64,000 bases of DNA, from contig CAVQFQ010000017.1 in NCBI GenBank assembly GCA_963711835.1, forward strand, positions 288,001 to 352,000, in the 5' to 3' direction. Source of the DNA: an uncultured delta proteobacterium. GTDB taxonomy: Bacteria; Desulfobacterota; RBG-13-43-22. Under the pieces are notes generated by a model, which did no database searches, had not been told where the DNA came from, and saw only the letters and a list, made by a program, of their open reading frames with translations. This document shows positions 44,849 through 57,354 of this stretch, one piece after another. Numbering within the stretch: position 1 is the stretch's first letter; each line of letters opens with the position of its first letter. Both the position numbers and the translations under genes were made by a program.

Positions 44849-46551
44849 AATTGGTGGGCCTTAATTTGGGGTTGGTTCCTTTTAGGGAGGCCTGGGAGTT
44901 GCAGAAAGAATGGGCGGCGCAGCGGCGGGAGGGGACATTGCCGGACGGATTGATTCTGCTGGAACATCCGCCGGTCTTGACCCTGGGCCGGTGGGGGAAA
45001 AAGGAAAATCTTAAGGTCTCGGCCGATTATTTAAAGCAGAAAAACATGGCTCTGATCCGCTGCGAACGGGGAGGAGAGATCACCTACCATGGTCCGGGAC
45101 AGTTGGTGGGCTACCCCATCTTGAGGTTGCAGTCATTCCAGCTCGGCGTCAGGACCTATGTCAGCCGTCTGGAGGAAGTCCTGATCAACACCCTGTTTGA
45201 TTTTGGTCTGGTCGCCGGTCGCCGGGAAGGATTTCCGGGTGTCTGGATCAACCAGCATAAGATCGCTTCTATCGGGATTGCCGTCCAAAAGGGCATTGCT
45301 TTTCATGGCTTTGCCCTGAACTACGCCCCTGATTTGGACCACTTCCGCCTCATCACCCCGTGCGGCTTGCCGGGTGTTGAAATGACCTCCATAGAAGCCA
45401 TGACCGGCAGACCCTTAGACCCTCATTATTTAAGGGAACGGGTGACCCGCAATTTCGGAGAGGTCTTCGGGGCTGAAATAGTCCCGGTAAGCCTTGAGGC
45501 TTTAAATCTGGAAACTGTGTCGCAATTACCAAAACGTCATTCCGGACGAGATCCGGAATCCATCCCGCCGAAGGCGGGACTGGATCCCGGCTCCCTTGGC
45601 CGGGATGACGAATTAAGACGCAGTCTTCAGCTAAAAAAGCCCCTCTGGCTCAAAAAAAAGATCCCTTCGGCAGGTTCCAGCGCCCAGGTCAAGGCCCTGA
45701 TCCGGAAGGGCGGGCTGCATACCGTTTGCCGGGAAGCCCAGTGCCCCAATCAGGGGGAATGTTTCAGCCGGGGAACGGCCGCCTTTCTGCTCATGGGAGA
45801 CCGCTGTACGCGCTGCTGTACTTTCTGTGCCGTGTCGCCCGGCCTTCCGAACCCATTAAACCCGGATGAACCGGCAGAGATCGCCCGGGCCGTAAAGAAG
45901 ATGGGGCTTTCCTATGCGGTCCTGACCTCGGTCACCCGGGACGATCTGTCTGACGGCGGGGCCGGCCATTTTTGTGAAACCATCGAGGCTATCGGCCGGA
46001 TCGTGCCTCAAACACAGGTCGAATGTCTCATCCCCGACTTCCAGGGATCGAAATCGTCCCTGGATCTGGTAGCCCGGACCGATCCGGCTGTCATCAATCA
46101 TAACCTGGAAACCGTGGAGCGTCTCTATCCCTCGGTGCGGCCAGGAGCGGATTTCAAACGCTCCCTCCAACTTATCGGATATCTCAAAGAAACTTTTCCC
46201 GGGCTATTGACCAAATCAGGGATTATGGTAGGATTGGGAGAGACCCGGGAGGAGACCAGGAGGGTCTTGGAGGATCTCCGGGATCAGGGCTGCGCCATCC
46301 TGACCATCGGCCAGTATCTGCAGCCTTCTCCAAAACATCATCCGGTAGTGCGATATGTTCCTCCCGATGAATTTGCAGGATGGGAGGAAGAGGCCTGCCA
46401 ACTGGGCTTTAAAGCCGTGGCCTGCGGTCCTTTTGTTCGCAGCTCCTTTGAGGCCGAAGGCCTTTATGCCAAGGCGGGGTCCAGCCCGCCCCGGCGGATC
46501 GGCGACCCCTCCCCCATCGGGGAGGAGAAAATATTTTGTTGCCTATCCTGA
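44812..46551 (+). CDS. lipB-lipA: Fused octanoyltransferase LipB - lipoyl synthase LipA
   Basis: LEHPPV.TLGR, RGGEITYHGPGQLVGYP, KIASIG, HGFALN, PCG; then TVCREAQCPNQGEC, CTRCCTFC, HNLETV, GQYLQP, VRSS. Confidence 0.93.
   Translation: MSLEAIPAPTSPKLVGLNLGLVPFREAWELQKEWAAQRREGTLPDGLILLEHPPVLTLGRWGKKENLKVSADYLKQKNMALIRCERGGEITYHGPGQLVGYPILRLQSFQLGVRTYVSRLEEVLINTLFDFGLVAGRREGFPGVWINQHKIASIGIAVQKGIAFHGFALNYAPDLDHFRLITPCGLPGVEMTSIEAMTGRPLDPHYLRERVTRNFGEVFGAEIVPVSLEALNLETVSQLPKRHSGRDPESIPPKAGLDPGSLGRDDELRRSLQLKKPLWLKKKIPSAGSSAQVKALIRKGGLHTVCREAQCPNQGECFSRGTAAFLLMGDRCTRCCTFCAVSPGLPNPLNPDEPAEIARAVKKMGLSYAVLTSVTRDDLSDGGAGHFCETIEAIGRIVPQTQVECLIPDFQGSKSSLDLVARTDPAVINHNLETVERLYPSVRPGADFKRSLQLIGYLKETFPGLLTKSGIMVGLGETREETRRVLEDLRDQGCAILTIGQYLQPSPKHHPVVRYVPPDEFAGWEEEACQLGFKAVACGPFVRSSFEAEGLYAKAGSSPPRRIGDPSPIGEEKIFCCLS
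45514..45624. repeat. CGTC-type palindromic repeat doublet inserted in-frame in lipB-lipA
   Basis: CGTCATTCCGGACGAGATCCGGAATCCA ... CTGGATCCCGGCTCCCTTGGCCGGGATGACG inside an outer IR ACTGTGTCGCAATT / AATTAAGACGCAGT. Confidence 0.85.
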
Positions 46552-49673: not shown

Positions 49674-49817
49674 TAGTGTAGTGTCTCAGACAAGTCTTTA
49701 CAACGTCTTAAAGAGCAGTCATTCCCGCGGAAGCGGGAATCCAGAAATAAAAAAACTGGATTCCGGGTCAAGCCCGGAATGACGGCACTGTAAAGCCATT
49801 ACGGAGACACTACATTA
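49674..49817. repeat. Gene-less CGTC-type palindromic repeat doublet (MITE-like)
   Basis: Outer IR TAGTGTAGTGTCTC / GAGACACTACATTA; inner GTCATTCCCGCGGAAGCGGGAATCCAG (49718-49744) and CTGGATTCCGGGTCAAGCCCGGAATGACG (49756-49784). Confidence 0.88.
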
Positions 49818-54624: not shown

Positions 54625-54840
54625 ATGAGAACGACATTGGCCATCAAAGACCAGCTCCTGGAGGAGGCCAAGGTCCTTTCCGGGGCCAGAACTAAAAAGG
54701 AGACCGTAGAGATCGCTTTAGATGAATTTGTCAGGAGGAGAAGGGCAAAAAAATTGATGGACCTGGAAGGCCAGGTGGAATTTGCCCGGACCCTGGATGA
54801 TTTTTTAAAACAAAGGAGAAAAGATGTTCCTTATCGATAG
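54625..54840 (+). CDS. vapB: VapB-family antitoxin
   Basis: MRTTLAIKDQLLEEA....G.RTKKETVEIAL; TTGACG-17-TAATAT promoter at 54566-54594. Confidence 0.88.
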   Translation: MRTTLAIKDQLLEEAKVLSGARTKKETVEIALDEFVRRRRAKKLMDLEGQVEFARTLDDFLKQRRKDVPYR

Positions 54841-55216
54841 TTCTGCCTGGATAGAATATTTCAGGCCGAAAGGATCTCCCAAGGTAAAAGAAAGGGTCCG
54901 GGAAATTCTAAAAAAGGAAGAAGCGGCCACCTGCGGCATTGTGATCGTTGAATTATTGAGGGGTGCCACAGATAAAAAAATCTATCAGTCTCTTAGAGAA
55001 GCCCTTTTAGCCCTTCCTCAAACCCCCTTAAATGATTCGGTGATTCAAAGGGCGGCCGAATGGGGCTTCTTGGTAGACCGTAAACTCAAGACCGTCCCGA
55101 CTACGGACCTTTTGATCGGCGCCTCCGCCTATAAAAAGGCAACGGTCCTGCACTGTGATAAGGATTTCGAGCTGCTGGCTTCGACCTTTGGTTTGGAACA
55201 GGAACGATGCCGGTAA
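54824..55216 (+). CDS. vapC: VapC PIN-domain toxin
   Basis: LIDSSAWIEY, ELLRG, TDLLIGA, LHCDKDF. Confidence 0.9.
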   Translation: MFLIDSSAWIEYFRPKGSPKVKERVREILKKEEAATCGIVIVELLRGATDKKIYQSLREALLALPQTPLNDSVIQRAAEWGFLVDRKLKTVPTTDLLIGASAYKKATVLHCDKDFELLASTFGLEQERCR

Positions 55217-55251: not shown

Positions 55252-56721
55252 ATGCAAAATCGGGGACATCCCCAGATTTGGTATGAGATCAACACCTGGG
55301 TCTGGCTGCATGATCTAAGCCGTCGCTACGGGCGAGAGATAACCCTGGGTGATGTTCCCGAAGCGGAATGGGAGGCCCTGGCCGAGCTGGGGGTGGAGGC
55401 CGTCTGGTTCATGGGGGTTTGGGAACGAAGCCCGGCCGGGCTGGTTATCGCCCTGGAAAACAAGGCCCTGCTTTCCGAATTTCGCCGGGCGCTGCCGGAT
55501 TTTAAACCGGAAGACGCGCTGGGCTCGGCTTACTGTGTGCGCCGTTATCGGGTGGATGACCGCCTGGGCGGGCCCCAGGGATTGGCCCGGGCCCGCGAGC
55601 AGTTGGCCAGGCGGGGGATCGGGCTGCTCCTGGATTTTGTCCCCAATCACGTAGCCCGTGATCACCCCTGGATTTCCGAGCATCCGGACTATTTCATCCA
55701 GGGCCAGACCGAAGACCTCAGCTTGAGCCCCGGGGAATTCTTCCCAGTCAAAGACTGGATCATTGCCTGCGGCCGGGATCCTTATTTCCCGCCCTGGCAG
55801 GATGTGGCCCAGGTCAATGCCTTTCATCCCGGTCTCCGCCGGGCAGCCCAAGACACCTTAATTGAGATCGCCGGCCAGTGCGACGGGGTCCGCTGCGACA
55901 TGGCCATGCTCCTGATAAATCCTGTTTTCGGGCATACCTGGGGCCGGCGGGCCGGTCAGGAACCGGCCCTGGATTATTGGCCTGAGGTGATTCAGGGCGT
56001 CCGGAAGCATTTTCCGGACTTCCTTTTTATAGCCGAAGTTTACTGGAACCTGGAGTTGGAACTGCAGCAGCAGGGCTTCGACTTCTGCTATGACAAGCGG
56101 CTTTATGACCGGCTGGAGCAGGGTCCGGCCGAGAGCGTCGGGCGCCATCTCCGGATGGATCCGGCCTGCCAGCAGAAGCTGGTCCGTTTTATCGAAAACC
56201 ATGACGAACCCCGGGCTGCGGCCGTCTTCCCTTGGCCGAAGCACAGGGCCGCGGCGGTGATCAGCACCACGCTGCCGGGGGCCAGACTTTTTTATGAAGG
56301 ACAGTTCGAGGGACGAAAGATCAGGCCGCCCGTCTTCCTGAGGCGCCGACCCCAGGAAACCATAGACCAGGAGGTGCTGGTATTTTACCGGCGTTTATTG
56401 GAGGCCCTCCAACTGCCGGCCATCCGGGAAGGGGAGTGGACTCTCTGCGAGCGGGCCGGCTGGCCGGACAACCAAAGTTTTCTGAACCTCCTGACCTGGT
56501 GCCGGCGCCGGGAAGGGGCGCGGGTCCTGATCGTGGCCAATTTCTCGGATCAGCCTTCCCAGGGGCGGGTACGGTTGCCCTGGACTGATCCGGCCGGCGG
56601 CACCAGGCGGCTGACCGATTTCTTCACCGGGGAGGTATTCGAGCGGGAGGGCCGTGAGATGGAGGATCCGGGCTTATACGTGGATCTTGAGGCTTGGGGC
56701 TTCCATTTTTTTCTTTTTTAG
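55252..56721 (+). CDS. Alpha-amylase family (GH13) glycoside hydrolase
   Basis: LDFVPNH, DGVRCDMA, AEVY, FIENHDE. Confidence 0.92.
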   Translation: MQNRGHPQIWYEINTWVWLHDLSRRYGREITLGDVPEAEWEALAELGVEAVWFMGVWERSPAGLVIALENKALLSEFRRALPDFKPEDALGSAYCVRRYRVDDRLGGPQGLARAREQLARRGIGLLLDFVPNHVARDHPWISEHPDYFIQGQTEDLSLSPGEFFPVKDWIIACGRDPYFPPWQDVAQVNAFHPGLRRAAQDTLIEIAGQCDGVRCDMAMLLINPVFGHTWGRRAGQEPALDYWPEVIQGVRKHFPDFLFIAEVYWNLELELQQQGFDFCYDKRLYDRLEQGPAESVGRHLRMDPACQQKLVRFIENHDEPRAAAVFPWPKHRAAAVISTTLPGARLFYEGQFEGRKIRPPVFLRRRPQETIDQEVLVFYRRLLEALQLPAIREGEWTLCERAGWPDNQSFLNLLTWCRRREGARVLIVANFSDQPSQGRVRLPWTDPAGGTRRLTDFFTGEVFEREGREMEDPGLYVDLEAWGFHFFLF

Positions 56722-56725
56722 GTAA

Positions 56726-57145
56726 CCCATTAGGCCTAACTTAAGAGCCGAGGGTTTCTCTGACGTCATTCCGGCGAAAGCCGGAATCCAGGGAGCCACC
56801 AGTGAATAAACAACCAGTGGTATATATTCTGGCAAGTAAAAGAAATGGAACTCTTTATATTGGTGTGACTTCAGATCTTGTCAAAAGGGTATGGGAGCAC
56901 AAAAACAATATGGTTGAAGGGTTTACCAAACGCTATGGTGTCCATCAGTTGGTTTGGTATGAATTGCACGAGGGCATGGGATCGGCTATTCAGCGGGAGA
57001 AGCAACTGAAAGAATGGAAGCGCAAGTGGAAACTTGAATTAATTGAGGGTGCCAATCGAAATTGGCAGGATTTGTATTATTTGATTGTCTGACTGGATTC
57101 CGGCTTTCGCCGGAATGACGCTACGCCTAAGTTAGCGCTTATGGG
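56726..57145. mobile_element. Putative element: GIY-YIG nuclease gene enclosed by CGTC-type palindromic inverted repeats
   Basis: Perfect 28-bp IR CGTCATTCCGGCGAAAGCCGGAATCCAG (56764-56791 and 57093-57120) plus an outer 18-bp IR matching 15/18 (56726-56743 and 57128-57145). Confidence 0.75.
56802..57092 (+). CDS. Small GIY-YIG family nuclease (UPF0213/COG2827-like)
   Basis: VVYILAS..NGTLYIGVTSDL.KRV.EH, LVWYE, AIQREKQLK.WKR.WK. Confidence 0.93.
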   Translation: MNKQPVVYILASKRNGTLYIGVTSDLVKRVWEHKNNMVEGFTKRYGVHQLVWYELHEGMGSAIQREKQLKEWKRKWKLELIEGANRNWQDLYYLIV

Positions 57146-57354
57146 ATGGAGGGGAGAGAGATAAGTCTCTGTTATTCACCCCCACCTCTCCGCCGCGGCG
57201 GACTCCCCCCTCTGAGGGGGACGGCCATGAGCCGGGTCAAAGAGGAAAATTTCAATTATCTTTGTTTAGCCCTTTGAAAAGGCCCGCCTCTTTCAGGCCG
57301 GCCAATTAGGCATCGGGTAAAAAAGCACATAGCGCCTATGGAACAGGGTTGGGC

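Follow-up and report, generated by a model that had tools for sequence, protein, structure and literature searches.

The Ssn family of GIY-YIG nucleases was defined by Chenal et al. (2025) (PMC11893778). In the part of that article drawn on here, SsnA of Neisseria meningitidis (cd10448) binds a 28-nt hairpin, the NTS, only as single-stranded DNA (ssDNA), cuts ssDNA 4 nt 5′ of the CGTC tag, and lowers transformation by NTS-bearing DNA in Neisseria; mutation of Y6, Y17, or E64 abolished cutting, and hairpins matching the SRM pattern are located on both sides of the gene in 42% of Ssn homologues (PMC11893778). The authors likened the NTS-ssnA-NTS architecture to the IS200/IS605 and REP/RAYT systems as a hypothesis; both the pairing of nuclease and hairpin and the RAYT/REP analogy are thus already published. 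A statement that CGTC REPs are without a dedicated transposase dates from 2013 and is older than the Ssn paper (Di Nocera et al., 2013, PMC3733652, seen in part). Among insertion sequences, IS421 has been placed in the IS231 group (PMC6352166), for which the end signature CAT-------AA--TAA--- and direct repeats of 10–12 bp are tabulated (PMC2266710, Table 1, from the part consulted). Furthermore, mobile insertion cassettes (MICs) are defined by IS ends and a passenger gene with no transposase, and trans-mobilisation is the route proposed for one of them, MIC231 of Bacillus cereus, in the section of PMC6199540 on which we rely.

The window analyzed here is a stretch of 64,000 nucleotides from an uncultured delta proteobacterium (GenBank assembly GCA_963711835.1, contig CAVQFQ010000017.1, positions 288,001 to 352,000). 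In this window, an ssn gene lies between its predicted recognition hairpins, the whole is enclosed in IS186-type ends, and the composite was probably inserted by an IS186-like transposase encoded elsewhere. The features are as follows.

56728..57143, no strand assigned: whole cassette of 416 bp without transposase, with IS186-type ends and Ssn cargo; ends common to 18 nuclease-bearing relatives (window included) of 416–463 bp
56728..56745, + strand: left terminal inverted repeat (TIR), decayed, 13/16 to the IS186 core by comparison with it
56746..56763, + strand: long spacer, with the G of GTC 37 nt from the element end; offset 35–39 in most relatives, sequence homologous but diverged
56764..56791, + strand: left NTS/SRM hairpin with CGTC tag, 8-bp stem, GAAA loop, and CCAG tail, from sequence and SRM match
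56791..56795, + strand: putative ribosome-binding site GGGAG, 6 nt before GTG
56802..57092, + strand: ssn gene for a 96-aa single-domain GIY-YIG nuclease (Pfam PF01541; homology to the SsnA orthologue)
57093..57120, - strand: right NTS/SRM hairpin, exact inverted copy of the left in sequence
57126..57143, - strand: right TIR, 16/16 to the IS186 core by comparison with it; G of GTC 24 nt from the end
57144..57154, + strand: right flank, a G-rich 11-mer similar to target sites found in relatives, with no matching copy at the left end (2/11)
45514..45624, no strand assigned: gene-less CGTC-type doublet with an unrelated weak outer repeat (11/14), from sequence
49674..49817, no strand assigned: gene-less CGTC-type doublet with another unrelated outer repeat (14/16), from sequence

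The open reading frame at 56802–57092 begins with GTG and encodes 96 aa with a Pfam GIY-YIG match (E 1.5e-16) and no other domain. The protein is identical at 60 of 93 positions to a protein of N. gonorrhoeae (65% over 93 of 94 aa, E 2e-46), which appears to be the SsnA orthologue from its 94-aa length, residue numbering, and NTS75-like flank. With this gonococcal orthologue as the reference, the values fall within the strict limits of the Ssn paper (identity of 60% or more covering 75% or more of SsnA, with E below 1e-10). Y8, Y19, and E66 align gap-free to Y6, Y17, and E64 of SsnA, and R29 and H33 are kept as well; all five catalytic residues are present in 18/18 cassette-borne genes. By homology, the nuclease of the window is a member of the Ssn family, sharing with SsnA the single GIY-YIG domain of about 95 aa and the Tyr/Tyr/Glu residues. 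A PDB search with the protein returned only 1ZG2 (E 0.005), and an NCBIfam profile search returned no match above cut-off. The median dN/dS of the cassette-borne nuclease genes, at loci chosen by similarity to an intact query and hence subject to ascertainment, is 0.094 over 153 pairs; this value corresponds to strong purifying selection and suggests that the nuclease matters to the host or to the element. A second Ssn gene, 72% identical, is present in the same genome (unit C17:662887-663242), with different hairpins in inverted orientation, whose stems are of the classic CCCGCG type, and no IS186 ends; a further doublet is found 45 nt away (region G000:C17:662772-663242).

A sequence-only reading of the window had described two perfect inverted copies of a 28-bp hairpin, and these were recovered exactly at 56764–56791 (+) and 57093–57120 (-). 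The tight fit of the gene between them also held, as the TGA ends at 57092 and the right copy starts at 57093, and the putative ribosome-binding site GGGAG (56791–56795) begins on the last base of the left hairpin as had been noted. Two hairpin matches were obtained in 0/100 shuffles of the sequence, and the whole 3.9-Mb genome contains just these two copies of the exact 28-mer. As with SsnA, a 28-nt CGTC hairpin fully matching the published SRM pattern lies on both sides of the gene; unlike in Neisseria, one C-G pair of the stem is swapped relative to the NTS (two compensatory changes), the hairpins abut the gene head-to-head, and the hairpin family of the genome is small, with 27 loose matches. 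The SRM pattern alone gave 48 genome matches versus 15–33 in five Markov controls and is by itself too loose for counting in this genome. The layout is also that of CGTC-1 among the CGTC REP families, with an 8-bp stem, a 4-nt loop, a CCA tail, and head-to-head dimers (Di Nocera et al., 2013, PMC3733652, in the part available). That the nuclease is the cognate enzyme of the hairpins, as had been proposed, is published for the Ssn family (PMC11893778, from the same part of the article), and the flanking enrichment was reproduced here: among 86 homologue loci for which 150 nt or more of sequence was available on each side, which are close homologues and not independent and include the window and two duplicated loci, an inverted hairpin pair was found within 300 nt in 59/86 and within 60 nt in 49/86, versus 0/2039 long ORFs of the window's genome within 300 nt.

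Like SsnA, the nuclease is predicted to bind the hairpin as ssDNA only, with a cut expected some 4 nt on the 5′ side of CGTC; the homology is seen in the sequence, and the activity is expected from it. With the cut position taken from the NTS75 oligo and the 20-nt product in the part of PMC11893778 covered, the predicted nick at the left hairpin would fall between 56759 and 56760 and that at the right hairpin between 57125 and 57124 on the bottom strand; the predicted nick at the short end is 1 nt inside the 18-bp TIR. Tandem duplications of about 20 nt next to hairpins span the predicted nick site in seven loci (L021, L022, L028, L031, L033, L036, and L064), and the duplicated unit consists of the hairpin 5′ arm and about 10 nt of upstream flank; slippage and nick repair are candidate explanations. 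Separately, hairpin-to-hairpin contigs from runs X1 and X2 (window 56765–57119) show 0 differences, whereas the flanking contigs listed differ by 2–4%; strain mixing may account for this, and run X1 also contains near-identical pieces elsewhere.

The outer repeat is, by end sequence, a terminal inverted repeat of the IS186 type (IS4 family), and this identification is what the present analysis adds to the published pairing of nuclease and hairpin. The 16-bp terminal core is found without mismatch at each end of a 1339-bp element with 99.9% identity to Escherichia coli IS186B, and an identical core is present at the right end in the window; the signature CAT-------AA--TAA--- fits the left end throughout and the right end as far as the final A of TAA. 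The outer inverted repeat originally placed at 56726–56743 and 57128–57145 does pair at 15/18 positions, but its limits were set too wide: the element itself is bounded by CAT...ATG, with its limits at 56728 and 57143, and the outermost CC/GG is target DNA outside the element. Contig ends of other copies in sequencing-run contigs fall exactly at 57143. Because the ends are the IS186 terminal inverted repeat, the element comprises 56728–57143. Environmental elements of 1.3–1.4 kb that share these ends code for DDE_Tnp_1 proteins containing the YREK motif, and one such autonomous element (L131) has an 11/11 duplication. By contrast with IS186/IS421, the window cassette has no transposase and measures 416 bp instead of about 1340; the nuclease is its only ORF, and no DDE/YREK transposase is encoded within it. 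A DDE transposase would recognize the repeats by their CAT ends, transfer all 416 bp as one piece, and leave a G/C-rich palindromic target of 11 bp in two copies; such duplications, a feature shared with IS186/IS421, occur in relatives of the window cassette, which would itself have been mobilised in trans. The targets of the cassettes are mostly CCC-N5-GGG or G-rich, whereas metagenome sites with IS186-type ends are GG..CC in 46/111 and CC..GG in 8/111.

IS ends, a passenger gene, and the lack of a transposase give the window element the layout of a mobile insertion cassette as defined in PMC6199540. It resembles MIC231 in having IS231-group ends round a passenger gene; it differs in that the ends are of IS186 type, the passenger encodes a nuclease and is accompanied by the hairpins that this nuclease is predicted to target, and the size is below the 700–3000 bp stated for MICs in the part of that source consulted. 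No mention of IS186-type ends round Ssn units was found in the portion of PMC11893778 covered. IS186-type ends are present in 38/401 phylum genomes and also enclose many unrelated palindromic cargoes; since other palindromic cargo lies in the same ends, the ends are not Ssn-specific and constitute a general vehicle. Seven loci have such ends round other palindromic repeats (L098, L111, L116, L199, L388, L389, and L397), L113 has them round a 2.3-kb cargo with a 262-aa ORF, and hairpin repeats from several families seem to accumulate in the IS186-type shell. The record of L408 (NZ_CP119140.1) is labelled as a plasmid but is 2.17 Mb long and looks like a chromosome.

Flanks of 11 bp matching at 9 or more of 11 positions were found in 13/22 TIR-bounded hairpin-bearing elements (10/18 with the gene and 3/4 without; four perfect at 11/11) versus 16/462 mismatched control pairs, and the mean flank identity peaks sharply at length 11 (0.73 vs 0.32–0.51). 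Duplications of 11 bp in relatives are the signature of a DDE transposase and not of a GIY-YIG enzyme. Related cassettes recur with the same spacing at unrelated sites in Desulfobacterota-type, NC10, and Chloroflexota genomes; the 37/24-nt offsets are constant and the spacers homologous across phyla, and these sequence features point to one origin of the cassettes. In sediment runs, other copies leave the window sequence exactly at 57143 into CCC-N5-GGG flanks. In one genome (G004), the nuclease-bearing cassette is present at four separate sites, along with one 87-bp derivative; two of the four copies are complete, 93% identical, and have different 11/11 duplications. CTG replaces the start codon in all four (L106, L108, L099, and L110) and one is frameshifted and truncated; the cassette of this genome may have kept moving after its start was altered. 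The flank at 57144–57154 in the window is 1 base off the perfect duplication of L106.

Structural variants occur among the relatives. In L003:1477-1892 (G034:C132:7818 onward), the gene has the opposite orientation with respect to the long and short cassette ends. L097 and L103, each 87 bp long, lack the gene, contain a single fused hairpin, and have 10/11 duplications of their own. Exchange between the two inner hairpins, or slippage, would yield both the flipped gene and the 87-bp forms, and the nuclease possibly plays a part in their formation. The 87-bp elements could alternatively be targets instead of deletion products, in which case hairpin-gene-hairpin units would have inserted into existing IS186-type MITEs on several independent occasions, and shell and cargo would not move as one. 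This account, which we consider highly improbable, draws on the many kinds of palindromic cargo in IS186-type shells and on the gene tree, in which TIR state is scattered (14 changes vs a shuffled mean of 16.6) and the TIR-bearing genes do not form one clade; the tree, from which 5 short rows and 4 duplicates were excluded, was built on 91 rows by 288 columns, and 41/88 of its branches are open. It is opposed by offsets that stay at 37/24 nt, and spacers that remain homologous, from one phylum to another, by the 93%-identical cassettes with different perfect duplications in one genome, and by the decayed spacers kept in several rows scored as TIR-less.

The sequence-only reading had taken the locus as a candidate autonomous unit, in which the nuclease nicks beside the hairpins and spreads both hairpin-gene-hairpin units and gene-less doublets, the role proposed for RAYT with GTAG REPs; the IS186 shell would then be a secondary vehicle. 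We regard this as unlikely, although several observations speak for it. Among 91 non-redundant genes, both TIRs are present in 18, one in 12, and none in 57 (4 unscorable), so most close homologues are without IS186 ends; many are tightly bracketed, with inverted pairs at 59/86 loci. The second Ssn unit of the same genome has different hairpins and no IS186 ends, the cargo is under purifying selection, the predicted short-end nick falls 1 nt inside the 18-bp TIR, and the hypothesis is raised in the covered part of PMC11893778. Yet the autonomous unit was not borne out: the outer repeat is an IS186-type end, relatives have 11-bp duplications, both of which point to a DDE enzyme at the window locus, and TIR-less units, in small samples, show neither duplication nor a fixed boundary above control. 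Direct repeats outside 19 TIR-less Ssn units, left after manual removal of 8/27 rows that were decayed cassettes or near-duplicates, numbered 4 versus 3.9 expected at 5 bp. No boundary signal emerged in 20 gene-bearing and 25 gene-less doublets (19/75 units dropped as near-duplicates; best p 0.01, at -5, without correction for the 25 positions compared), and an excess at -4/-5 in the 19-unit set was gone in the larger set. The hairpin copy number is also low, at 27 loose matches. GIY-YIG enzymes hydrolyze and are not known to have a strand-transfer step. REPtrons, which pair RAYT with GTAG REPs, are alike in that a nuclease gene is bracketed by tagged hairpins; their enzyme is an HUH tyrosine transposase, whereas that of the window is a hydrolytic GIY-YIG protein for which Pfam gives GIY-YIG only, and no sign of nuclease-made insertions was found for the Ssn units.

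The two gene-less units at 45514–45624 and 49674–49817 had been cited as sharing the architecture of the nuclease element. Both are indeed head-to-head CGTC doublets with outer repeats in the same layout, but their outer repeats are unrelated to IS186 and to each other. Since stems and outer repeats differ in sequence, these units are not derivatives of the nuclease element, and the shared architecture is, from the sequence comparison, best read as nesting in unrelated MITE shells, not as descent from it. A third shell type, with a GTAAAAAGTC-type end motif, has a CGTC hairpin just inside at 11/22 ends genome-wide.

Several results stand against insertion by an IS186-like transposase. The 11-bp flanks of the window copy do not match (2/11); duplications are often lost through recombination or adjacent deletion (PMC11708052, in the part consulted). 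The TIR-bearing genes do not group together on the poorly resolved gene tree, and the purifying selection on the cargo, at loci chosen by similarity to an intact query, exceeds what a passive passenger would require. With a decayed left end, a missing left target copy, and no cognate transposase found, this copy looks old. An IS186-like transposase was not found in the window's genome (tblastn, best E 0.55) or in 10 genomes holding TIR-bearing nuclease loci, and 21 family genomes yielded one E 4e-4 fragment only; 2/301 phylum genomes contain one. These searches used draft assemblies, and transposase pieces do occur at contig ends in G338, while in G005 a TIR is followed by a transposase-like start at the contig end; the contig-end pieces do not explain the absence away. 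Two PF01609 matches in the window's genome were rejected as the cognate transposase, as they have no IS186-type ends nearby and were unmatched by three transposase queries.

The cassette is flanked by a GH13 gene on one side and an amidohydrolase gene on the other, and the sequence-only reading had suggested a search for an empty site between them in relatives. In 20 family genomes, no counterpart of the amidohydrolase was detected at E 1e-30, GH13 DNA matches were not joined to an amidohydrolase, and no orthologous site was found. In 8 sequencing runs, all used as contigs, none of the joints listed skips 56728–57143; many joints from 56791 to 57093 represent hairpin doublets of other organisms, and one contig of 95% identity (X6 record 16) departs from the window sequence at 56707 and has a further 175 letters beyond that point. 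A VapB antitoxin and PIN-domain gene pair is located at 54625–55216, immediately upstream of the GH13 gene. The right flank at 57175–57267 is repeated at C15:156008-156054 and C17:378067-378145 and is a G/C-rich REP- or MITE-like stretch.

Both cassette junctions are present in run contigs of related strains, and the frame, ribosome-binding site, and catalytic residues are intact while the left end has decayed. These features favor a further account, by which the locus is a fixed ssDNA restriction module used by the host to limit integration of incoming hairpin-bearing DNA, like SsnA of Neisseria with its transformation phenotype (PMC11893778, in part), and the IS186 ends are relics. We hold this to be a distinct possibility, short of an even chance; it is compatible with arrival by an IS186-like transposase. 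It is countered by a related strain in RNA run X13, a run not taken to show transcription, in which a deletion of 56821–57273 removes most of the gene, and by the copies of G004 that are broken or without a start codon.

A transposase-moved cassette also leaves room for a two-tier selfish system, in which the IS186-type shell would move ssn between genomes and phyla, while the nuclease would flip or excise the gene at the hairpins, yielding 87-bp MITEs and seeding CGTC doublets. This extension is unlikely; if true, the Ssn nick would be the missing propagation step for CGTC REPs. No description of an IS186-type vehicle for ssn was found in the literature searched, in the covered part of PMC11893778, or in the peer-review file of the Ssn paper. 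The full cassette, the flipped L003, and the gene-less L097 and L103 are natural variants that form a ready substrate set for asking whether Ssn spreads its own hairpins. Furthermore, the IS-like look of the NTS-ssn-NTS unit can stem from a borrowed shell, and hitch-hiking in a very small IS186-type cassette provides a concrete route by which ssn may spread horizontally without its product being a transposase.
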